Positions 1,389 to 11,238 of a stretch of 64,000 nucleotides of DNA are shown here, piece by piece. This stretch comes from an uncultured Dehalococcoides sp. (lineage in GTDB: Bacteria > Chloroflexota > Dehalococcoidia > UBA2979). The notes beneath the pieces were generated by a model. It was not told the DNA's origin. It did not search any database and saw nothing but the letters and a program-made list of their open reading frames with translations. The stretch spans positions 15,977-79,976 of the forward strand of contig CAZVNJ010000003.1 in NCBI GenBank assembly GCA_964628985.1, in the 5' to 3' direction. Each line of letters opens with the position of its first letter. Within the stretch, counting starts at the first letter, position 1. The translations under genes were made by a program, and so were the position numbers.

Positions 1389-1781
1389 CTAGTGGTCGCC
1401 GCCCCTATCGGGCGCGCCGGCCGTGCGGCTCACGATCTCGACCAACTCATCGAGGTCAAAGGGCTTCCGGATGACCGCCGCGGCCCCGATCTCGGCCCCG
1501 ACAGCCGCAGCCTCCATCGAACCAGACAGGAGCACGATCGGGATGTCACCCCACGCCGCGCGCTGCTGGTCCACAAACTCGCGCCCCCCCATCCCCATCA
1601 TGCGCAGATCCAGGATGATGAGGTCGGGAAGCCGGTCGATGAGCATTGTGAGGGCTTCCTCACCAGAGCGGGCGCCGCGAGCGGTGAACCCCTCGGAAGA
1701 CAGAGTGTCCACGACGAGGAACCGGATCAGGTCCTCGTCTTCCACTACCAGGATGTCCGGGGCGGGCCCGTCCTGCGTCAT
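1389..1781 (-). CDS. Single-domain response regulator (CheY-like receiver only)
   Basis: 130 aa. DILVVEDEDLIR...LIILDLRMMGMGG...KPF receiver motifs with no output domain. The ATG overlaps the stop of the upstream kinase (ATGA at 1778-1781). Confidence 0.8.
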   Translation of the reverse strand: MTQDGPAPDILVVEDEDLIRFLVVDTLSSEGFTARGARSGEEALTMLIDRLPDLIILDLRMMGMGGREFVDQQRAAWGDIPIVLLSGSMEAAAVGAEIGAAAVIRKPFDLDELVEIVSRTAGAPDRGGDH

Positions 1782-3463
1782 CTGAGGCCTGGCAGTGGTG
1801 GCGAACCCTCCGCGGTGATGACGGGCCGGAGGGGAAGACGCAGGACCACCTGGGTCCCGCAGCCCACGCCCTGGCTCGTTGCTGTCAGGGTGCCGCCATG
1901 TGTCTCGATCAGTCGCCGGGAGATGTGGAGTCCCAGTCCCATCCCCGGGATGTTGGCCTCCGTGGCATTCGGTGCTCGCCCGAACGGGACGAATATCTGC
2001 TCCGCTGCGCTTGGCGGGAAGCCGATACCTTCATCCTGCACCGCGATCACGACCGCCTCAGGCTCCGCCGCCACCGACACGGTGATCGCGCCGCCTTCCG
2101 GTGAATACTTCACCGCGTTCCCCAGCACATTGACCAGCACCTCACGCAGCCGGATGGGGTCAGCCCGAAGCGGACGGGCCTCGTCGGCGCACTGAAGGGC
2201 CAGGTCGTGAAGCGGCGCCGTCGAGGCCGTTTCCGCCAACACCTCGCGGATCAGCACCAGGACATCGAAGTCCTCCGGCTTCAGGATCAGCCGCCCAGTT
2301 TCCAGCCGGGCGACGTCGAGCAGGTCGTCGAGCAAGTGGGCCAGGCGGTCACTTGTCTGGACCAGCGCCTCGACGTACTCCCTGGCGCGCGTCACGTCGG
2401 CCCCCTGCGCGCGGTGCAGCCGCTGCAAGAGCTGCGCGGTCCCCTTCAGGCCCGCGACGGGATTCCGGAGCTCGTGTGAGGCGATCGACAAGAACTCATC
2501 GCGGGCATGCACCGCCGCCTCGGCCTGCTCTCGTGCCCGTTGTTCCGCCTCCAGGAGTCGGATCCGCTCGGCCTCCTGGAGGTTGCGCGAAGTGATATCC
2601 ATGAGGACGTTCACACCGCCGATGACCTTGCCGCGGGCGTCGCACAGCGGCGTTGGGAACGGCAGGACCGTCACGGTGTTCCCGTCCGGTTGGACGATCA
2701 GTATCTCCACGTCCCGCACCGGACGGGCTTCCATCAGTGCCACGGCCATCGGGCACTCCCCAAGGCTCATGGGGCGGCCGTCGGGCCATAACAGCCGCCA
2801 TGATCCACACCAGACATCGTGTCCGATGACAGGATGGCGACCCCATACGGCCGCAGCCTCGTCGTTGTAATAGGTGATCCGGCCCTCGGCGTCGGTCGTG
2901 TAGGCGGCGACGCCCATGCCCTCGACCAGCGCGCGGTAGCGTTCCTCGCTCGCAGCGATCGCCGCAAGCGCCTGCTGCTTGTCGATCGCAAAGGCGATCT
3001 GGGCGCCAATGACCTGCGCCGTGAGCACCTCTTCCTCGATGAAGGTATGGGGCTCGGCGTAATACAGCATGAACTTGCCGATGAGGCGGCGCGCGACGAT
3101 CAGCGGGATGAAGGCCACGGACCGGATGCGCTCGCGCCGCAGCACGTCCATCAGCGCCTCGAGGTCCCCGTCAGCCTGTACGTCTGGCACGAGGACTGGC
3201 TGAGGGTCCACCGCGTCCACGGCCCACGGCGAGTGACCCTCGACCGCGGCCCGGTAGGCGTCCGACAACCCACGCCAGGCCCGAAACCGCATCACACCTT
3301 CGGCGTCAAACAGCAGGATGGACGAACGGTCCACGTTCAATCCAGAGGCCAGGCATTGGAGGGAGGCGTCGAAGATCTCGTCGATGCCCTGCGCTGCCGC
3401 GACCGTCTGGGTGAGGTCATGCAGGGGCTGGAGCGCGTGGACGGCAAAGCGGGAGGTGACCAT
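1778..3463 (-). CDS. Sensor histidine kinase with GAF and PAS domains, HisKA and HATPase
   Basis: H-box SIASHELRNP, N-box NLVGNAVKYS, G-boxes DEGIGF and GMGLGL. N-terminal GAF-like and PAS regions. The track ORF starts with GTG at 3478. I prefer the ATG at 3463, preceded by GGGAG. Translationally coupled to the receiver gene. Confidence 0.85.
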   Translation of the reverse strand: MVTSRFAVHALQPLHDLTQTVAAAQGIDEIFDASLQCLASGLNVDRSSILLFDAEGVMRFRAWRGLSDAYRAAVEGHSPWAVDAVDPQPVLVPDVQADGDLEALMDVLRRERIRSVAFIPLIVARRLIGKFMLYYAEPHTFIEEEVLTAQVIGAQIAFAIDKQQALAAIAASEERYRALVEGMGVAAYTTDAEGRITYYNDEAAAVWGRHPVIGHDVWCGSWRLLWPDGRPMSLGECPMAVALMEARPVRDVEILIVQPDGNTVTVLPFPTPLCDARGKVIGGVNVLMDITSRNLQEAERIRLLEAEQRAREQAEAAVHARDEFLSIASHELRNPVAGLKGTAQLLQRLHRAQGADVTRAREYVEALVQTSDRLAHLLDDLLDVARLETGRLILKPEDFDVLVLIREVLAETASTAPLHDLALQCADEARPLRADPIRLREVLVNVLGNAVKYSPEGGAITVSVAAEPEAVVIAVQDEGIGFPPSAAEQIFVPFGRAPNATEANIPGMGLGLHISRRLIETHGGTLTATSQGVGCGTQVVLRLPLRPVITAEGSPPLPGLR

Positions 3464-3592
3464 ACGCGCTCCCGGCACCGGGGTCGGGGATGACGCACCG
3501 AATATATTCGCGGGCCGCCCGCGGGAAGTTGCAGATCCATCACAACGATGTGGGCAGCGTGACGAGAGCGCGACGGTGTGACTGAGGTTGGT

Positions 3593-3667
3593 TGGTGAGC
3601 CCGCTCGGATTCGAACCGAGGACCGATGGATTAAAAGTCCACTGCTCTACCGCTGAGCTACGGGCCC
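3593..3667 (-). tRNA. tRNA-Lys (anticodon UUU), CCA encoded
   Basis: Reverse complement reads GGGCCCGTAGCTCAGCGGTAGAGCAGTGGACTTTTAATCCATCGGTCCTCGGTTCGAATCCGAGCGGGCTCACCA. It folds as a cloverleaf with a 7-bp acceptor stem, anticodon loop CUUUUAA and GTTCGAATC T-loop. It is nearly identical in layout to bacterial tRNA-Lys. Confidence 0.9.
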
Positions 3668-3718
3668 CCGCGAAATCGTAGCGGGGTGGGAGGGGACGTG
3701 CCCGCACAGGCGCCGAGC

Positions 3719-4489
3719 CTACCCGCCTCCGCTGGTGTCCCAGAAGTGCGTGTGGGCCGCCGGGGCTGCGACCAGCGCCTCGTAGAGGGGCTGGACGGTT
3801 GGGGTCGCGCCCCCAACGGCGTCCTGCATCGCCGTCTGCCAGTACCGCTGCAGGGGATTGAGCGCGTCCGCGTCAAAGCGCGCCTCCTGCATCTGGAACG
3901 ACCCCCGCCGGTAGAGGACAGTGTCGACCGGATAGTCGACATCGGATGCGCTGGTGCGAGTGGCATCGAAGGAAAGCAGCCCCACTCGCAGTGCCTCGAA
4001 CAGGCCCTGTTCGTGCCGCCAGACACGGTCCAGGATGGGCTTGCCGTAGCGCGACTCTCCGATGATCACGTAGGGCGCGCCGGTGCGCACCTCCACCCAG
4101 TTGCCTTCCGGGTAGATGAGGTAGAGCCGGTGCTGGTCATCGCCTTCGAGTTGTCCGCCGAAGATGCAATGGAGGTCGAAGTAGAGGCCGCCCTCCATGA
4201 GCCACTGCAGGTCTTCGCGCCTCACCCTTCGAAGTTCCTCCGCCAGCACGTTGGCGGCCATGTACATCTTCTTCAGTTCACCGGACGAGGACTGCAGCCG
4301 CTCCTCGAAATAGGTGAGGGCCTTGTCCCGGATCGAGCGCAGCCCGCTCGTCAGGATGAACATCGAGTGGTTCTCGTACTGGTGGACGGAGATTTTCTTC
4401 GCGGTCGAGAGCTCGGTCCCGGACGTGATCCGCGTGTCCGCGATGGCGAGCAGCCCCTCCTCGCAGCGCATTCCCAGGCAGAAGGTCAT
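3719..4489 (-). CDS. Proteasome-like Ntn hydrolase of the Anbu (ancestral beta subunit) type
   Basis: 256 aa, starting MTFCLGMRCEEGLLAIADTRITSG. Thr follows the initiator Met directly with no propeptide, as in Anbu. Proteasome beta-fold-like pattern. Sits in the canonical position downstream of the CP-ATP-grasp and alpha-E genes. Confidence 0.75.
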   Translation of the reverse strand: MTFCLGMRCEEGLLAIADTRITSGTELSTAKKISVHQYENHSMFILTSGLRSIRDKALTYFEERLQSSSGELKKMYMAANVLAEELRRVRREDLQWLMEGGLYFDLHCIFGGQLEGDDQHRLYLIYPEGNWVEVRTGAPYVIIGESRYGKPILDRVWRHEQGLFEALRVGLLSFDATRTSASDVDYPVDTVLYRRGSFQMQEARFDADALNPLQRYWQTAMQDAVGGATPTVQPLYEALVAAPAAHTHFWDTSGGG

Positions 4490-4586
4490 ACCGAGATCTC
4501 GTTTCCTGCTGCGCCTCGATCGGCCGGGCCGGCGCCGGGCGCGTCAGGCCGCCATCGTAGTCCGGCCCACTGTCAATGACGAAGGC

Positions 4587-5546
4587 TCAGCGAGCCGCCG
4601 AAGGCACGGCCCGGAAAATGTGGTCCACCATGGCGGTGTGGACCCGTCCGAGGCGAATCTGGAACTCGTCAATGAACTCATGGAGTCCCTCGCGTACCAC
4701 GGTTTCCGCGTCAGCCGCCCCCAGGTCAAGTTGCAGGAGGGCCAGCTCGCGTGCCGCCGGAAGGGCCTGCTGTCGCGGCGTGGCCTCGGAGGCGCGATCA
4801 AAATGGCGCGTGAACGCGGCAATACAAAACCGCAGACTGCGCGGGAAGTCATCGTCCAAGAGCAGCATCTCGGCCACGCGTACGCCTGTGATGGCGCCTC
4901 GGTAGCGCTTGCGAAACGCCTCCAGGGCGCTCGCCGACCGCAGGATGCCCATCCACTGATAGGTGTCCAGCGTGCCACCGACATCCTCAGGAGAGGGCAG
5001 CAGGATGAAGTACTTGGCGTCCACGATGCGGCTCGTCATGTCGGCGCGCTCGATGAACAGGCCGCAACGCAGCCACTCGCGCCCTTCGTTTAGGAGGACT
5101 GTGTTGTCGAACAGCCCCACAATGGCTGCCACCGTGCGTTTCACACTGGCGGTAAAGGGCCGCATGCCAGCGGTGTGCGGCGCGCGCGTGGCTGACAGGT
5201 AGAGGAGGTTGATCTCCTCGAAGACCTCACGCGAGATGTGCTCACGCAACTCACGCGCGAGCGAGCGGGCCTGTGTCACGGTCGAGCGGAGTGAGTTCGG
5301 GTTCGCCTCGCTGAAGATCAGCCAGTCACCGGGTGAGAGGTCCGGCGAGACCTGGAGTGCGGTTTCGTATTCCTCGCCCGCGTTGAGTGCACCCACCAGG
5401 GCCGACCACAACTGGTGGTCGTCCCCGCCGGAGGCACGCTGTTCGACCGAGGCGTTGTAATTCACCTCGGCCATGCGGGCGACGTTCTCCGCACGCTCCA
5501 GGTAGCGCCCGAGCCAGTAGAGGTTTTCCGCGACTCGACTGAGCAT
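4587..5546 (-). CDS. Alpha-E domain protein (DUF403)
   Basis: 319 aa. N-terminal LSRVAENLYWLGRYLERAEN is the alpha-E signature. ATG preceded by AGGAGG. Stop 10 nt from the ATP-grasp gene stop region. Confidence 0.85.
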   Translation of the reverse strand: MLSRVAENLYWLGRYLERAENVARMAEVNYNASVEQRASGGDDHQLWSALVGALNAGEEYETALQVSPDLSPGDWLIFSEANPNSLRSTVTQARSLARELREHISREVFEEINLLYLSATRAPHTAGMRPFTASVKRTVAAIVGLFDNTVLLNEGREWLRCGLFIERADMTSRIVDAKYFILLPSPEDVGGTLDTYQWMGILRSASALEAFRKRYRGAITGVRVAEMLLLDDDFPRSLRFCIAAFTRHFDRASEATPRQQALPAARELALLQLDLGAADAETVVREGLHEFIDEFQIRLGRVHTAMVDHIFRAVPSAAR

Positions 5547-5555
5547 CGCTGCCTC

Positions 5556-7013
5556 CTACGCGCCACGTGCCGAGCGGAGGACCCAGGTGTCCTTGCTGCC
5601 GCCACCCTGGGAGGAGTTCACGATGTACGAGGTCGAGTCCGCCGCGACGCGCGTGAGCCCGCCAGGGAGCACCCACGAGGACGCGCCGGTCACGACGAAC
5701 GGACGGAGGTCTGCGCGCCGGGGCTCCAGCCGCTCACCGTCAAACGACGGGATGGTGCTGAACTCCTGCAGCGGCTGGGCGATGTACCCCTGCGGGTTCG
5801 CCTTGAGCATGGCCCGCGCCTCCGCGAGTTGCGCAGCACTGGCCTGCGGGCCCACGACGATTCCGTACCCGCCCGAGGCGTTCGTCGGCTTCATCACGAG
5901 GTCGCCCAGGTTGGCGAGCATGAACTCCAGGTCGCTCGGGAGCGCGCCGATATAGGTGTCCACGTTCGGGATGATCGGCTCTTCGCCCAGGAAGTACCGG
6001 ATCGCCTCAGGCACAAACCGGCACGTCACCTTGTCGTCCACGAGGCCGTTCCCGATGGCATTCACGATGGTGACATTGCCGGCTCGATAGGCATCGAAGA
6101 GGCCGGCGACGCCCAGCGCGGAGTCCGCGCGGAACACCGTCGGGTCGAGAAAGTCGTCGTCCACCCGGCGGTAGATCACATGCACCGGCTCCAGGCCCGT
6201 CGTGGCGCGGAGGTACACGTGGTCCTCGTGCACCAGCAGGTCTCGCCCTTCGACAAGTTCCACACCCATCTGCCGTGCGAGGAACGAATGCTCGAAGTAG
6301 GCGGAGTTGTAGGAGCCCGGGGTCAGGATGACTGCCCGTGTCTCGTCAGCCTCCACCCCCGCCGGCCGGACAGAGACGAGCATGTCGAGCACTCGGTCCG
6401 GGTACTCGTCCACCGGCGCCACGCTCCCCGCCGGAAATAGGTCAGGCACCACATTCAGCATCGTGCGGCGATTCTCCAGGACGTAGGACACCCCCGAGGG
6501 CGTCCGCACATTGTCCTCTAGCACCCGGAAGATCCCGTCGCGGTCACGGATGAGGTCGATGCCCGCGATGTGCGCCCAGACGCCCATGGGAGGGACGAAG
6601 CCCCGCATCCGCGGGTTGAAGCCGGGGGCGCCTTCCACCAGGGCGGCCGGGATGACCCCGTCGCGGACGGAGCGTTGCTCACCATAGAGATCGGTCAGAA
6701 ACCGATTGAGCGCAGTGACTCGTTGGACCAGTCCCGCACGGATCACGTCCCACTCGCCCTCCTCGATGATCCGAGGGATCAGCGAGAAGGGGAGAATCCG
6801 TTCCGTCCCCATCTGATCCTGGTAGACCGTGAACGTGACGCCGCCGTTTAACTGCTCCAGGTCAGACGCCGCCTGCCGGGCGCGGTAGTCCTCCGAGTTC
6901 CAGCGGCGGATCCGGTGTGCGAACTCAGCGTAGGACGGGCGCACCGAGCCGTCCGGCGCGAACATCTCGTCCGGGCCGGCCAGCGTGCGGTACCCGGAGA
7001 GCAAGTCGGCCAT
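5556..7013 (-). CDS. Circularly permuted ATP-grasp type 2 protein (DUF404/DUF407 family)
   Basis: 486 aa from the ATG at 7013 (MADLLSGYRTLAGP...). Matches the circularly-permuted type-2 ATP-grasp family that is always paired with alpha-E. The track ORF extends to a GTG at 7181 with an Arg-rich, non-protein-like N-terminus, which I rejected. Confidence 0.85.
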   Translation of the reverse strand: MADLLSGYRTLAGPDEMFAPDGSVRPSYAEFAHRIRRWNSEDYRARQAASDLEQLNGGVTFTVYQDQMGTERILPFSLIPRIIEEGEWDVIRAGLVQRVTALNRFLTDLYGEQRSVRDGVIPAALVEGAPGFNPRMRGFVPPMGVWAHIAGIDLIRDRDGIFRVLEDNVRTPSGVSYVLENRRTMLNVVPDLFPAGSVAPVDEYPDRVLDMLVSVRPAGVEADETRAVILTPGSYNSAYFEHSFLARQMGVELVEGRDLLVHEDHVYLRATTGLEPVHVIYRRVDDDFLDPTVFRADSALGVAGLFDAYRAGNVTIVNAIGNGLVDDKVTCRFVPEAIRYFLGEEPIIPNVDTYIGALPSDLEFMLANLGDLVMKPTNASGGYGIVVGPQASAAQLAEARAMLKANPQGYIAQPLQEFSTIPSFDGERLEPRRADLRPFVVTGASSWVLPGGLTRVAADSTSYIVNSSQGGGSKDTWVLRSARGA

Positions 7014-7325
7014 TCGTCTCGCTTCAGCGTGCCTGCACAGTCCTGACTGATCCGGCGCGGGCCTGCTGGCTCGGCGCCATCCCGGCACGCGCCTGTAGCG
7101 ACCGACGCACCGACCGGCCAGGCCGCGGCCGGTGCCCCTCGCAGTACCGGTGCGGCGCGCCCACCAGTTCCAGGCGGGCACACGGTGCGCCGGCGCAGAC
7201 GCAGCAGAGATCCATCGAGGTACTCCCTTGTCGCGCCTCGAGCGTGCCGGAGGGGCGTTTCGGATACGTGCCGTCGATGTGACGTGGATATTACACGGTC
7301 GCTCACAGAGGGGAGGGACGTGCGA

Positions 7326-9326
7326 CTACTCCTCGGGATGGGCTTCCATGACCTCTCGGACCAGGGAACGCAGGAGGTCCACCTGGTACGGCTTCTGCAC
7401 GAATCCAGTGATGCCTCGCCCTGCGAAATGGCGCGTGGCCTCGGCCTCGTTGTATCCGCTCATCAGGATGATCGGCGCGTGCGGGTCAATGGCTCGCATC
7501 TCACGGAACGCCTGCTCCCCGTCCATGCCCGGCATGGTCAGATCGAGCAGGACGAGCCCAACTTCCTGCTGGTGTTGGCGGAAGGTCTCGACGCCCTGCA
7601 GGCCATCGTCCGCGGTCAGCACCCCAAGGCCCCAGTTCTGCAGGAGACGCGTCGTCACCGCACGCACCATCGAGTCGTCGTCCACCACGAGGACCATCTT
7701 GCTACTGATGATGGCGGGCGGCCGCTGCGAGGAGCGGGACGTCGAGGCGTGAACCAAGTCAGCGCCCATCGCCGGGATCAGCACCCGGAAGGTCGTCCCA
7801 TGACCCGGTTCGCTGTAGACCTTGATCGCTCCGCGGTGCCCGCGCACGACGCCCAGCACCACTGCGAGGCCGAGGCCGCGGCCGGTGAACTTGGTCGTGA
7901 AGAACGGGTCGAAGACCCTCGCACGGACATCCGGCTCCATTCCCTGCCCTGTGTCGGAGACCTCGAGGAACACGAAGTCCCCCTCTTCCACGGCGTCGAG
8001 ATACGCCTCATCGAGGTACGAGCGGTCAGCGTGCATGAGGCCCGTCGTCAGCGTGACAACGCCGCTGCGATCGCCGATCGCGTCAGACCCATTGATGACC
8101 AGGTTCATGATCACCTGACGCAATTGCGTAGGGTCAGCCTCGACGCGTGGCAGCCCGGGCGCGAGGTTCTGACGCAGTACGACACCCTTTCCTACTGAGA
8201 CACGGAGGAGGTGAGTCATCTCTTCCACGATTTGGTTGAGATGCACTGGGGAGAGGGCCAGGGTGCCCTTCCCCGAGTAGGCGAGCATCTGATGGGCCAC
8301 CTCTGCCGCACGCCGTCCGGCCAACTCGATGTCCTCGATGATCGGCCGCGCCGGCGACTCCGGGGACAGTTCCTCAAGCGCGAGACCTGCGTTGCCCAGG
8401 ATGCCGACCAGCAGGTTGTTGAAGTCGTGCGCGATGCCGCCCGCCAGGAGGCCCAGGCTCTCCATTTTCTGCGCCTCGCGTAGCGCCGCTTCAGACCGCC
8501 TGCGCTCCGTCACGTCCCTCACCACCGCGATGCAGATCAAGCGTCCACCGACCATCGCGCTCGAACCGGCAAGGTCCATCGGGAAGCGCGTGCCGTCCCT
8601 GCGCACGCCCTCGGTCTCATTCAACGCACCCCGGTAGATATTGCTGAGGCCCGGGCCGGAGTCGCGGAACTCCTCATATTCGGCGATGAGCTCTGGCGCC
8701 AGGATCAAGCGCGCGCTCTGGCCGATCATCTCGGTCGCCGTGTACCCAAACATGCGCTCCGCGGCCGGATTGAAGGACTCGATCAAAAGTGTTGCCGCGT
8801 CCATCACGATGATGCCGTCGACCGCCGTCTCCACAATCGCACTCAGGCGGGCCTCGGCGTCCCGCAGTGCGTTCTCCGCCCACACGCGTTGCGTGACATC
8901 GCGCACGAGGCCAATAAACATGCGCTCTCCACTCGGAAGCGTGCTCGCCGTCACTGACAGTTCGAGCGGGAAGACCGAGGCGTCCTTGCGCCGTCCCTCG
9001 ACGGTCCGCCCGGTACCGATGATCCGCTCTTCGCCAGTCTGGAAGTAATGATCGAGGTAGCCGTCATGCTCGGAGCGGTATGGCTCCGGCATCAGCATCG
9101 AAACATTCTGCCCGATGACCTCGGCAGTCTCGTACCCGAAGATGCGGACCGCAGCCGGATTCATCGACTGGACGACCCCATGTGCGTCGATGGTGACGAT
9201 GCCGTCCACGACTGCGTCGAAGACCGCGAGGGCCCGCGCCTCCGCGTCGTCCAGCGGTGGGCCGTGCTGTCCGTTGGTGCGGTCGCCTGTGGTATCCGGT
9301 ACCACCCCGCTCCCCCATCCAGTCAT
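7326..9326 (-). CDS. Hybrid sensor histidine kinase: PAS-PAS-HisKA-HATPase-receiver
   Basis: 666 aa. Two PAS blocks (IVTIDAHGVVQSMNPAAVRIFGY... and IIVMDAATLLIESFNPAAERMFGY...). H-box GIAHDFNNLL, N-box NLVINGSDA, G-boxes DTGQGM and GRGLGL. C-terminal receiver VLVVDDD...LDLTMPGMDG...KP. Confidence 0.85.
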   Translation of the reverse strand: MTGWGSGVVPDTTGDRTNGQHGPPLDDAEARALAVFDAVVDGIVTIDAHGVVQSMNPAAVRIFGYETAEVIGQNVSMLMPEPYRSEHDGYLDHYFQTGEERIIGTGRTVEGRRKDASVFPLELSVTASTLPSGERMFIGLVRDVTQRVWAENALRDAEARLSAIVETAVDGIIVMDAATLLIESFNPAAERMFGYTATEMIGQSARLILAPELIAEYEEFRDSGPGLSNIYRGALNETEGVRRDGTRFPMDLAGSSAMVGGRLICIAVVRDVTERRRSEAALREAQKMESLGLLAGGIAHDFNNLLVGILGNAGLALEELSPESPARPIIEDIELAGRRAAEVAHQMLAYSGKGTLALSPVHLNQIVEEMTHLLRVSVGKGVVLRQNLAPGLPRVEADPTQLRQVIMNLVINGSDAIGDRSGVVTLTTGLMHADRSYLDEAYLDAVEEGDFVFLEVSDTGQGMEPDVRARVFDPFFTTKFTGRGLGLAVVLGVVRGHRGAIKVYSEPGHGTTFRVLIPAMGADLVHASTSRSSQRPPAIISSKMVLVVDDDSMVRAVTTRLLQNWGLGVLTADDGLQGVETFRQHQQEVGLVLLDLTMPGMDGEQAFREMRAIDPHAPIILMSGYNEAEATRHFAGRGITGFVQKPYQVDLLRSLVREVMEAHPEE

Positions 9327-9455: not shown

Positions 9456-11123
9456 CTAGGCAGAGCACTTCACATAGACCGCTGTGCCCGCCGGAATGCC
9501 GTTCGGGAAGAGGGCATCCCACGTGAGATTGATCACCGCCGGAGCGCCCGGGATGTAGCCGACCCACTGGCCTTGCGGGTTCGTCGCCCAGAGCACGAGC
9601 CGTCCAGCAGGACAGCCGGTCGCCGTCACGAGTGCCTGGTTCGACCCGCCCCCGAAGACAAACAGTCCGGAACTGCCCGGCGGGAATGTCGTGGTCGATC
9701 CCGTCGGCGCTGGAGCGGTCCCGCTGGTGTACGTGTACCCGCCCGGTAGCGCTGCCCCGGCGCCGCCGGCATTCGAAACCACGACGAGTGCGGGACCCGC
9801 AGCAGGAGAGGTCGGCACGGACGCCAGGATCTGCGTCGAACTGATCACGTTCACGTTCGTCGCCGGCACTCCGCCAATCGTCACGATCGCACCGGCCACG
9901 AACCCGTGCCCGTTGATCGTCACCAGCGTCGGCGTCCCGACGGGCCCCGAGGCGGGCGAGACGGACGTCACGCCTATGCCAGTCGCGCTCGCGGGAGGCG
10001 TCGTCCCGGCGGCGAGATAGTTGAAGCCACCGGCGATACCGCTAATCAGTCCACCGGGGTTGGTCACAAGGACGGTGGACGGTCCGACTGTCCCCGGTGG
10101 GGTGGTCGCGAGGATCTGCGTACCGCCTGCCACGATCACATTGCCGGCAGCAAGCCCACCAAAGGTCACCGTTGCACCGGTAACGAAACCCGACCCTGTC
10201 AGCGTGACGGCCGTCCCGCCGGCGACCGGCCCGCTGTTCGGTGTGATCGTTGAGAGGACGGGCGCGGTCATCGCATACGTAAATGCCGAGTTCAGCCCGC
10301 CAACCGAACCGGTCGAGTTGCTGACGAGGACCGTGACACTGCCCGCAGCGTTAGCGGGCGTGACCGCCGTGATGAGCGTTGCGCTCACGACGGTCACCGA
10401 AGTAGCCGGGACGCCTCCAAAGGAGACCGTGGCCCCAGGCAGGAATCCAGATCCCGTGATGGACACCGCCGTGCCGCCGGCGGGTGAGCCGCTGGGTGGC
10501 TGGACCGAGGCCACGACGGGTTGAGTCGTACTTGTGGGAGTGGCGGAACCGGCGGGGTAGGAAGCAAACGAACCGTCCGGGTTCGTGACCGTCGCAGTCG
10601 CGGTGCTCACCCCAGCGGGAGCGACCGCGATGATGAGGGACGGGCCGGCCACGGCCCCGGCGCCAACCGATACTCCGCCGATCGTGACGGTGGCACCTGA
10701 GACGAAGCCGCTTCCCGAGATGTAGACCGTGTTCGTCCCGCCGGATCCGGGGATCGCATTGAGACCGGCGATCGTGACGGCACCCTGCACGATGGTCTGG
10801 TACTGGAACTGCACCGGGCTGGTGCCGGCACTGCCGTCAGGGTTCACCACGACGACATTCACCGAGCCAGCGGCCCCTGGTGGGGCTGTTGCGACCAGAA
10901 CGTTCGCGCTCGACACGATGACGTTCGAGGCGTAGGCACCTCCGAAGATCACCGACGCTCCTGAGGCGAACGCGGATCCCGTAATCGTGACCTGGGTGCC
11001 GCCGGATACCGAGCCGTTCGCTGGAGAAATCCCGGTGATCACCGGCTGAGCCGCTGATGCTGTCCCCGGAATCAGCGACAGCGCGACGGCGGCGAATAGG
11101 ACTAGGACAATCCGGTGTCGCAT
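9456..11123 (-). CDS. Secreted cell-surface protein with five tandem IPT/TIG domains and a distinct Cys-containing C-terminal domain
   Basis: Signal peptide MRHRIVLVLFAAVALSLIPGTASA. ATG at 11123 preceded by GGAGGTG. Five ~88-aa repeats of the form PxItxIxPxsGpxxGGTxVTItGsGFxxGAtVtFGG...NPdG. I rejected the upstream part of the track ORF (11124-11237). Confidence 0.75.
   Translation of the reverse strand: MRHRIVLVLFAAVALSLIPGTASAAQPVITGISPANGSVSGGTQVTITGSAFASGASVIFGGAYASNVIVSSANVLVATAPPGAAGSVNVVVVNPDGSAGTSPVQFQYQTIVQGAVTIAGLNAIPGSGGTNTVYISGSGFVSGATVTIGGVSVGAGAVAGPSLIIAVAPAGVSTATATVTNPDGSFASYPAGSATPTSTTQPVVASVQPPSGSPAGGTAVSITGSGFLPGATVSFGGVPATSVTVVSATLITAVTPANAAGSVTVLVSNSTGSVGGLNSAFTYAMTAPVLSTITPNSGPVAGGTAVTLTGSGFVTGATVTFGGLAAGNVIVAGGTQILATTPPGTVGPSTVLVTNPGGLISGIAGGFNYLAAGTTPPASATGIGVTSVSPASGPVGTPTLVTINGHGFVAGAIVTIGGVPATNVNVISSTQILASVPTSPAAGPALVVVSNAGGAGAALPGGYTYTSGTAPAPTGSTTTFPPGSSGLFVFGGGSNQALVTATGCPAGRLVLWATNPQGQWVGYIPGAPAVINLTWDALFPNGIPAGTAVYVKCSA
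9713..11051 (-). repeat. In-frame tandem repeat region encoding 5 IPT/TIG modules (~264 nt period)
   Basis: Repeated peptide blocks (GGT.VT.TGSGF..GATVTFGG.) recur with ~88-aa spacing. They are visible at DNA level as recurring ggcggcac..gtgac/ggctccgg-type strings. Confidence 0.6.
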
Positions 11124-11238
11124 TGAGGGCACCTCCAGAACCGTGTAACAGCGTACTCCTTTCACCATTAGTTTGGCGATTCGAGTTCTCACAGATTCAA
11201 ACCCCGTTTGCTGGCCGGATTCCGGACGGGCACGCACA

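Follow-up and report, generated by a model that had tools for sequence, protein, structure and literature searches.

A small gene with a conserved repeat tail heads a transglutaminase-less Anbu cluster in an uncultured Dehalococcoidia bacterium

A gene cluster of the proteasome-family hydrolase Anbu is found in a 64,000-nucleotide stretch of DNA from an uncultured Dehalococcoides sp. (contig CAZVNJ010000003.1, positions 15,977 to 79,976), referred to as the window throughout. The cluster very probably comprises four genes under purifying selection, namely a small unannotated gene, the gene for an ATP-grasp ligase, an alpha-E gene and, behind a short spacer, the Anbu gene, with the transglutaminase gene seen in related clusters deleted (Table 1). 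The small protein ends in a QxRAG-repeat tail conserved across five clades, and the odds that it is a dedicated, ribosomally made substrate or partner of the cluster enzymes are about even. Knowledge of Anbu and its partner genes dates back to 2008-2009 and crystal structures exist, while substrate, activity and role have not been found. What Anbu acts on is not known (PMC6376114), finding its physiological substrates has been named a key open task (Fuchs et al., PMC5666114), and Piasecka et al. reported no peptidase activity with standard substrates and described the proposed operon roles as experimentally unconfirmed (PMC6376114). The initial annotation of this DNA presented the ATP-grasp, alpha-E and Anbu genes as a conserved trio. 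The three co-directional genes are indeed present as open reading frames (ORFs) on the minus strand, but the unit was drawn too short, as a fourth gene lying just beyond it heads the cluster. Judged by the names of homologues, the nearest relatives are Dehalococcoidia-like metagenome-assembled genomes (MAGs) of Chloroflexota. Related loci are labelled L###, and gene orders are abbreviated with G for ATP-grasp, E for alpha-E, T for transglutaminase and A for Anbu.

The small ORF is a coding gene, as shown by an excess of third-position variation in five clades, a low ratio of nonsynonymous to synonymous divergence (dN/dS), its GC content by codon position, Shine-Dalgarno-like motifs and independent gene calls. 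Variable sites at codon positions one, two and three number 10/11/33 in the clade of the window and 21/20/40, 16/15/27, 15/18/31 and 23/18/30 in four other clades, and dN/dS is 0.07-0.21 at a synonymous divergence (dS) of ~1. The GC content at third positions (GC3) is 0.81 in the window, and in every locus GC3 (0.70-0.94) exceeds the second-position value (GC2, 0.51-0.72). The sequence GGGAG stands 7 nucleotides (nt) before the ATG in the window, and GGAG or GAGG precedes most of the other starts. The gene has been called independently in other assemblies, although it is usually missed by gene callers, as in L001 and L005.

The encoded protein, MDLCCVCAGAPCARLELVGAPHRYCEGHRPRPGRSVRRSLQARAGMAPSQQARAGSVRTVQAR, is basic, begins with a CxxC...CxxH module and ends in 10-residue repeats of the form QxRAGx5, QxRAGx5 and QxR-stop, the last residues being QAR. 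Across the five clades, homologues measure 46-65 amino acids and their last 28-29 residues align without a gap as Q-x-R-A-G-x5-Q-x-R-A-G-x5-Q-x-R-(G)-stop, with Q41, R43, A44, G45, Q51, A54, G55, Q61 and R63 invariant. The N-terminal parts vary, and the CxxC...CxxH module is confined to the window clade and its Anbu-only sister clade. AlphaFold2 predicts the N-terminal 30 residues with a per-residue confidence (pLDDT) of about 82 and the repeat tail with 56-63, which is consistent with a folded head carrying a flexible tail. The protein matches no Pfam or NCBIfam family. A profile search of 5.8e9 proteins returned only 34 matches, of which the named ones are all "hypothetical protein" from Chloroflexota or Dehalococcoidia MAGs, while an exhaustive hidden Markov model (HMM) search of 1.84 billion representatives gave 24 matches at E<=0.001, about 16 of them true members. 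The remaining matches of the exhaustive search were discarded as low-complexity repeat proteins. The sole match outside the family with a period-10 xQxRAG pattern, P0155 (223 amino acids), carries five tandem EQLRAGNVTA decapeptides and is unrelated.

This gene heads both four-gene and three-gene clusters in most Chloroflexota clades. Starting from matches to the small gene itself, seven of eight contexts place it directly upstream of the gene for the circularly permuted (CP) ATP-grasp ligase (L088, L090, L099-L103). At L011-L015 and L020 it is followed ~80 nt on by Anbu (e.g., 6721-6918 and 7001-7768 in L012), with no ATP-grasp, alpha-E or transglutaminase gene within 7 kb. The small gene is therefore common to the G-E-T-A, G-E-A and Anbu-only forms and to L090, in which Anbu is fragmented into two short ORFs of 96 and 65 amino acids (9558-9994). 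No description of a small repeat-peptide gene in Anbu clusters was found in the literature searched. On Azospirillum plasmids, a hypothetical protein of 55-56 amino acids is encoded ~150 nt before a solitary Anbu-1-type gene (L093 5680-5850, L094 5672-5839). It is Gln-rich and acidic, has no Pfam match and ends in ...DEKGGQQR. The Q-x-R ending that it has in common with the otherwise unrelated Chloroflexota proteins may be a coincidence.

Table 1. Genes, spacer and candidate promoter elements of the Anbu cluster, numbered by position in the window.
Feature	Position	Strand	Basis
Small gene, 63 amino acids + stop, unannotated	7024..7215	(-)	ORF and comparative coding evidence
ATP-grasp ligase, circularly permuted type-2, 485 amino acids	5556..7013	(-)	Pfam PF14403 CP_ATPgrasp_2, PDB 3N6X
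Alpha-E protein, 319 amino acids	4587..5546	(-)	Pfam PF04168
Spacer, 97 bp, site where relatives have the transglutaminase gene	4490..4586	(-)	ORF borders
Anbu, 256 amino acids	3719..4489	(-)	PDB, AlphaFold2, Foldseek, catalytic residues
Candidate promoter, TG + -10-like TAATAT (TGTAATAT)	7288..7295	(-)	Start of conserved block
-10-like hexamer TACGAT in spacer, candidate Anbu promoter	4554..4559	(-)	Comparative conservation

The identities of the first two enzymes, as claimed initially, are borne out by matches over practically the full profiles. The ATP-grasp protein covers positions 1-374 of the 374 in PF14403 (E 9e-153) and aligns over residues 15-480 with PDB 3N6X, a "putative glutathionylspermidine synthase" (E 2e-147). 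The alpha-E protein, which starts with the motif ENLYWLGRYLERAE, covers positions 1-292 of 294 in PF04168 (E 3e-80), and sequence search found no related solved structure. The genes are tightly packed, with 10 nt from the small-gene stop to the ATP-grasp ATG and 9 nt from the ATP-grasp stop to the alpha-E start, while alpha-E and Anbu are separated by exactly 97 bp.

The third enzyme is Anbu and not HslV or a 20S subunit, as shown by sequence, catalytic residues and fold. Its N-terminus reads MTFCLG, and the Thr following the initiator Met, for which the protein was first called Anbu-like, is found in all relatives. No start codon precedes the ATG at 4489 in the open frame, which leaves no room for a propeptide. 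Searching PDB sequences with phmmer returned the Anbu entries 5LOY, 5NYJ, 5NYF, 5NYW and 5LOX (E 3e-36 to 1e-26) and proteasome alpha subunits only at E 0.04, with no HslV, BPH or PrcB/bacterial beta subunit among the matches; the Pfam Proteasome family matches at E 5e-7. The AlphaFold2 model (pLDDT 90.5) shows the beta-subunit sandwich and, beyond this core, C-terminal helices 207-227 and 229-241 that correspond to the Anbu-specific H5 region; alignments to Anbu chains extend to about residue 224-236. In a Foldseek comparison with the PDB, the best 31 matches are all Anbu chains (E 8e-22 to 1e-15, template-modelling (TM) scores 0.8-0.9), followed by 20S beta subunits (E 6e-12). Clustering with HslV or PrcB, an outcome the initial annotation had left open, is thus disfavoured by sequence and fold comparison rather than by a phylogeny. 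Thr1, Asp17 and Lys31 (aligning with K32 of the Anbu-1 consensus, the Lys32/33 equivalent) are invariant in 47 sequences, and catalytic and pocket residues are the same in the G-E-T-A, G-E-A and Anbu-only forms.

Aligned to the Anbu-1 consensus, the predicted S1 pocket of the window protein is I20-A29-T46-R50-R53. Anbu-1 has T20-F30-T48-L52-S/T55 at these sites and Anbu-2 of Cytophaga hutchinsonii I20-A29-R46-R50-T53, the basic pocket being a published mark of Anbu-2 (PMC5666114). The numbering of the window pocket equals that of C. hutchinsonii Anbu-2, three of the five residues are identical and two are Arg. The nearest relatives outside Chloroflexota are from Cytophagales (53-57% identity). 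Since numbering, basic character and nearest outside kin all agree, the protein may tentatively be called Anbu-2-like, an assignment made from pocket alignment and kinship.

The transglutaminase gene is truly missing at this locus within the 64-kb window. A profile built from 59 operon-type homologues of the fetched loci, seeded with the transglutaminase of the four-gene relative L005, was run against all stop-to-stop ORFs of at least 30 amino acids in six frames, and no transglutaminase was found (best E 3.3). This negative search rules out a hidden or frame-shifted copy, which the initial annotation had named as the way in which its claim of a missing gene could fail. The 97-bp spacer is too short to hide a gene of ~270 amino acids, a fusion is excluded because all three proteins have single-domain lengths, and an assembly error is excluded because the G-E-A layout recurs in independent assemblies from different samples.

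An Anbu-protein genome scan yielded 80 loci, which were classified by family profiles, and together with protein look-ups gave 38 Chloroflexota loci. Transglutaminase lies directly upstream of Anbu in 20 of the 38 (G-E-T-A where the flank is complete), ten are G-E-A (the window, L008-L010, L001, L021, L022, L027, L029 and L038), seven have Anbu with no ATP-grasp or alpha-E gene nearby (L011-L015, L020, L024), and in one, L036, transglutaminase is upstream of ATP-grasp. L102 is an additional G-E-A locus outside this set. In trees built from Anbu alone and from the three proteins joined end to end, the window clade is supported at 97%, L001/L021/L022 form a clade (100%) sister to the four-gene L025, L038 nests with the four-gene L041/L042 (100%) and L029 stands apart. 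The G-E-A form has therefore arisen repeatedly, in at least three to four independent lineages. At L038 the deletion has left a footprint, as homology to L041/L042 runs through alpha-E, an 819-bp transglutaminase segment is then replaced by 164 unrelated bp, and homology is back 35 nt before Anbu. Between the window and L008-L010, dS is 0.94-1.47, with synonymous sites nearly saturated, and dN/dS is 0.07-0.08 for ATP-grasp, 0.05-0.09 for alpha-E and 0.03-0.05 for Anbu. Such low ratios at dS ~1 mean that the enzyme genes have been kept by selection since the loss, and the transglutaminase-less layout is a recurrent, selected variant. In a search for a gene that takes the place of transglutaminase, all-against-all clustering of flanking ORFs revealed no G-E-A-specific family, although shadow ORFs in this GC-rich DNA brought noise into the clusters.

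Outside Chloroflexota, the neighbourhood is no less modular. Most Cytophagales have alpha-E, Anbu and then transglutaminase, often with no adjacent ATP-grasp gene (checked with Pfam in L064), while L046, L047, L048, L051 and L080 have alpha-E and Anbu with no transglutaminase within 7 kb, and L052, L056 and L060 have transglutaminase and Anbu only. The loci L044-L087 belong to Cytophagales and related Bacteroidota; in L064 (5941-8574), a HerA-like ATPase is divergently encoded upstream of alpha-E, Anbu and transglutaminase. The four-gene order has likewise been called "predominant" or "frequent" and not universal (PMC6376114, PMC5666114, PMC3235984). The initial statement that transglutaminase canonically sits between alpha-E and Anbu thus applies to some lineages and fails in Cytophagales, where the gene follows Anbu. 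Its description of the cluster as a minimal or variant form is right as to variant, but minimal gives way to a modular neighbourhood, in which the ten G-E-A loci stand beside Anbu-only, T-G-E-A, E-A-T and E-A arrangements. A few clusters are decaying or disrupted. In addition to the fragmented Anbu of L090, the transglutaminase gene of L037 (3658-6939) is split by ~2.5 kb and its ATP-grasp and alpha-E genes lie ~1 kb apart, and transposase genes separate ATP-grasp from the other cluster genes in L099 (7713-11602). In L001-type G-E-A clusters (L001, L002, L102), Anbu is followed by a conserved gene of the APH family (aminoglycoside-phosphotransferase-like kinases) and an LPG_synthase_TM gene, while their upstream ADH and MFS genes are also those of the four-gene L005 and L088.

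The alternative that survives best is that the system works in the canonical way, with a transglutaminase-like protein supplied in trans from another locus and only the gene order changed; we regard this as possible but improbable. Valas and Bourne found no Anbu genome fully devoid of transglutaminase-domain genes and usually placed unlinked partners in the same predicted regulon (PMC3235984). The gene is also mobile in the neighbourhood, standing before ATP-grasp in L036 and after Anbu in Cytophagales. Yet none occurs in the window or within 7 kb of the ten G-E-A loci, and repeated independent loss is more readily understood for a gene that can be spared.

The spacer that replaces transglutaminase had been described as structured, and its length of 97 bp is as reported, but the structure does not hold. 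Its minimum free energy of -37.6 kcal/mol compares with an average of -40.0 for shuffled copies (z = +0.69), and 147 of the 200 copies reach an equal or lower energy. No Rfam family matches, and at E<=0.1 only the tRNA family appeared. A structured or riboswitch-like spacer is rejected on these results. A consensus scan called no terminator-like or sigma-70-like site in spacer or leader. Among the L008-L010 relatives, the spacer is poorly conserved and about 55-100 nt long, the only elements kept among the closest relatives being a purine-rich stretch before the ATG and cTACGATg (TAAGAT in L008). The pattern TANNAT occurs in 17 of the 20 100-nt Anbu upstream regions that lack a directly preceding transglutaminase gene, against a background of 2.4% of 100-nt windows; the loci are related, which leaves any P value indicative only, and apart from the hexamer their spacers do not align. 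Where Anbu stands alone, in the Anbu-only clade, this element begins 12 nt before the ATG, a leaderless-type geometry. TACGAT is present in six copies in the window (9.4 expected), one of which (3675-3680) ends 8 nt before the 5' end of tRNA-Lys and another 11 nt before the ORF start at 9326. Given the conserved TANNAT and these two positions, the spacer hexamer is a candidate -10 element for Anbu. Anbu is thus probably also transcribed from a promoter of its own, which leaves read-through from upstream possible, and a single transcript across the cluster would not be the default expectation.

A second candidate promoter lies at the head of the cluster. When the window is aligned with L008-L010, conservation starts abruptly at TGTAATAT and runs to the ATP-grasp start; 5' of this element, the four loci have different neighbours and do not align. 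The element probably drives the small gene, ATP-grasp and alpha-E, given the 10-nt and 9-nt gaps between them. In L038/L041/L042, which have a divergent upstream gene and no small gene, a conserved TACGTATAGT element is located ~15 nt before the ATP-grasp ATG, and in the L036/L038/L041/L042 clade ATP-grasp is immediately preceded by a TATAGT element.

It is conceivable, though less probable than a general role as substrate or partner, that the QxRAG protein is the substrate of the ATP-grasp/alpha-E/(transglutaminase)/Anbu system that has been missing since 2008, its tail being ligated or extended and then processed by Anbu. The small protein is proposed as substrate because it is the sole element common to the G-E-T-A, G-E-A and Anbu-only forms and L090, and because its conserved part is the terminal repeat tail, as would be expected of a part recognised by enzymes. 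ATP-grasp and alpha-E would act at its C-terminus by extension or ligation, as RimK- or tubulin-tyrosine-ligase (TTL)-type ligases do on protein tails. The conserved module (QxRAG-x5-QxRAG-x5-QxR-COOH) holds no Asp and no Glu, so the ATP-grasp target would be the C-terminal carboxylate only, or a Glu formed by deamidation of an invariant Gln. Anbu would then hydrolyse the modified or repeat tail, and its predicted basic S1 pocket (R50, R53) would suit an acidic P1 residue such as that of a Glu-type extension. In four-gene relatives, the transglutaminase-like enzyme could be a further amidase or peptidase for this tail, one that the system can do without, and the invariant Gln would be its plausible site. 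Gln is the classic target of transglutaminase-fold enzymes. This particular chemistry of the tail is speculative and unlikely to hold as drawn, while for the explanation as a whole, combining anatomy, transcription and mechanism, the chances are about equal either way. As represented in PMC3495828 and PMC6376114, Iyer et al. (2009) predicted that such ATP-grasp enzymes add peptide tags and that associated peptidases remove them, and the small protein fits this tagging model, as it is given there, by supplying a candidate target. The ATP-grasp protein of the Yersinia Anbu operon releases phosphate from ATP (PMC6376114). Two other functional leads were dropped: Rv2411c, a CP-ATP-grasp protein, is merely a negative control in a 2026 preprint, and a preprint on isoaspartate in uS11 is irrelevant.

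Several observations speak against the small protein as substrate and against parts of the wider account. Cleavage by Anbu after QxR would put Arg at P1, a poor fit to a basic S1 pocket, and the pocket assignment itself comes from alignment to the Anbu-1 consensus and not from a solved Anbu-2 structure. Where only the small gene and Anbu are left, they could be neighbours simply because the genes between them were deleted, and the small-gene homologue of L104 is an orphan beside CoA-transferase genes. The small gene was not detected in the L036/L038/L041/L042 clade or in L029, nothing clear was seen in L025, and it was found in none of 44 non-Chloroflexota loci and none of four proteobacterial plasmid four-gene operons; being undetected in several Chloroflexota loci and in all non-Chloroflexota loci examined, it is not a universal component. 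The transglutaminase scan covered the 64-kb window, and a gene elsewhere in the genome is possible. Finally, the promoter elements are consensus-like motifs at sites where the sigma-70 scan called none.

Compared with the canonical four-gene Anbu operon (Valas and Bourne 2008, PMC3235984; Piasecka et al. 2018, PMC6376114; Fuchs et al. 2017, PMC5666114), the window cluster has the same families, order and orientation and the same tight ATP-grasp/alpha-E coupling. It differs in lacking transglutaminase, in the Anbu-2-like basic pocket where the proteins studied have the Anbu-1 pocket, in the likely internal promoter before Anbu and in the extra small gene at the 5' end. In close Chloroflexota relatives (Anbu ~70% identical), all four genes are present and the upstream neighbours, ADH and MFS, are the same.

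Among peptide-based systems, the Pup-proteasome system of Actinobacteria consists of Pup, Dop, PafA, Mpa and the 20S proteasome, and the Pup tail, GGQ or GGE, is handled by a glutamine-synthetase-like ligase. The window cluster resembles it in having a small protein with a probably disordered, Gln-bearing tail beside an ATP-dependent carboxylate-amine ligase and a proteasome-family hydrolase, and the amidase/transamidase-type enzyme of the four-gene relatives could act on Gln. In contrast to Pup, the small protein ends in QxR or QxRG and has no sequence similarity to it, the ligase is an ATP-grasp enzyme, and the locus has no AAA+ unfoldase and no PafA or Dop gene. The system may work in a similar way and is not itself a member of the Pup-type modifiers, while conjugation of the small protein to other proteins is pure conjecture. 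The likeness to RimK and TTL, following the Iyer model in the form relayed by PMC3495828, lies in the pairing of an ATP-grasp ligase with peptidases and in the small-protein C-terminus as sole carboxylate of the module. The window enzyme differs in being circularly permuted type-2 with an alpha-E partner that looks obligatory.

A further parallel is offered by peptides that are made on ribosomes and modified after translation (RiPPs). Lasso peptides combine a transglutaminase-fold leader peptidase with an ATP-dependent amide-forming enzyme. Like a multi-core RiPP precursor, the small gene heads its cluster beside an ATP-dependent ligase and one or more peptidases and encodes a variable, leader-like N-terminus followed by two to three tandem decapeptides, whose ends (AG...QxR) are invariant while their middles vary. 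Yet the window cluster showed no enzyme family of a RiPP class, no transporter and no recognition element, the core lacks the Asp/Glu and Ser/Thr/Lys patterns typical of graspetides, and the cluster is single-copy, chromosomal and housekeeping-like.

An unlikely alternative, in line with the initial annotation, takes G-E-A as the whole unit, a plain minimal Anbu operon. The small gene would then encode an unrelated, co-transcribed basic protein that binds zinc and acts as a regulator, or one that binds nucleic acids. In its favour, selection maintains three intact enzymes, the small protein is very basic with a CxxC...CxxH module modelled at moderate confidence, and its gene was seen neither in some Chloroflexota clusters nor in any of the non-Chloroflexota loci examined. 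Yet what is conserved across clades is the repeat tail and not the Cys/His module, and the gene keeps its place at the cluster head in five clades and in seven of the eight reverse look-ups and stays with Anbu after the ligase genes are lost.

Equally unlikely is an Anbu that has parted functionally from the ligase genes and works by itself as a peptidase under its own promoter, the adjacency being a historical remnant. Such a peptidase would agree with the -10-like hexamer before Anbu wherever no transglutaminase gene abuts, with the sister clade in which Anbu occurs but ATP-grasp and alpha-E do not, and with the general degradation role favoured by Fuchs et al. (PMC5666114). Against this, the G-E-A adjacency has persisted through dS ~1 in the window clade and has also arisen and lasted elsewhere, and an internal promoter is compatible with read-through across a spacer that has no terminator-like site.

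Far less credible is a regulatory leader peptide in which stalling at Gln or Arg codons senses nitrogen status, even though Anbu operons are induced by nitrogen limitation in Pseudomonas putida (PMC3235984, PMC6376114, PMC5666114) and nitrogen-rich Gln and Arg are among the invariant residues. What is conserved is the amino-acid sequence, while codons for Gln, Arg, Ala and Gly have changed synonymously, and 46-65 amino acids is long for a leader peptide. Moreover, the ATP-grasp start follows after 10 nt with no terminator-like hairpin, and the gene persists beside a solitary Anbu with its own -10-like element. An assembly or frame-shift artefact, finally, can practically be dismissed as the source of the missing transglutaminase in view of the gap size, the six-frame search and the independent assemblies described above.

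On its own, the transglutaminase-less layout is of modest interest, being recurrent and not a one-off, and the main interest lies in a testable substrate candidate. The layouts act as natural experiments in which ATP-grasp, alpha-E and Anbu are held together under selection with no need of transglutaminase and Anbu persists without ligase genes, which argues against models in which Anbu serves transglutaminase. The small protein is a concrete candidate, namely a short chain whose repeat tail is invariant and whose gene stands at the cluster head and has stayed beside Anbu. Should the enzymes modify or cleave it, the family's chemistry as a whole would become accessible, the cluster would form a self-contained pathway of peptide modification or tagging comparable to Pup or RiPP systems, and the transglutaminase-less and Anbu-only forms would be natural dissections of this pathway. 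If not, the locus would merely add another gene order to those of a known operon, in uncultured Chloroflexota.

Two-component genes flank the cluster on both sides. A GAF-PAS-HisKA-HATPase kinase (1778-3478) and a receiver protein (1389-1781) are encoded on one side and a double-PAS hybrid kinase with a receiver domain (7326-9326) on the other, all on the minus strand. These neighbours are not kept in L008-L010, where the sequence 5' of the small gene is unalignable with the window. A tRNA-Lys(UUU) gene (3593-3667, minus strand) lies 51 nt past the Anbu stop, and since the 7 kb around Anbu contain no tRNA in L008-L010, L012, L013, L018 and L020, synteny ends right after Anbu. Farther out on the same strand, a PGA_cap (capsule synthesis) homologue (Pfam E 2e-75) is encoded at 252-1316, and a 593-amino-acid ORF at 9456-11237 shows, from its translation, a signal-like N-terminus and Gly/Thr/Val-rich repeats of ~90 residues (...GGTxVTITGSGF...).

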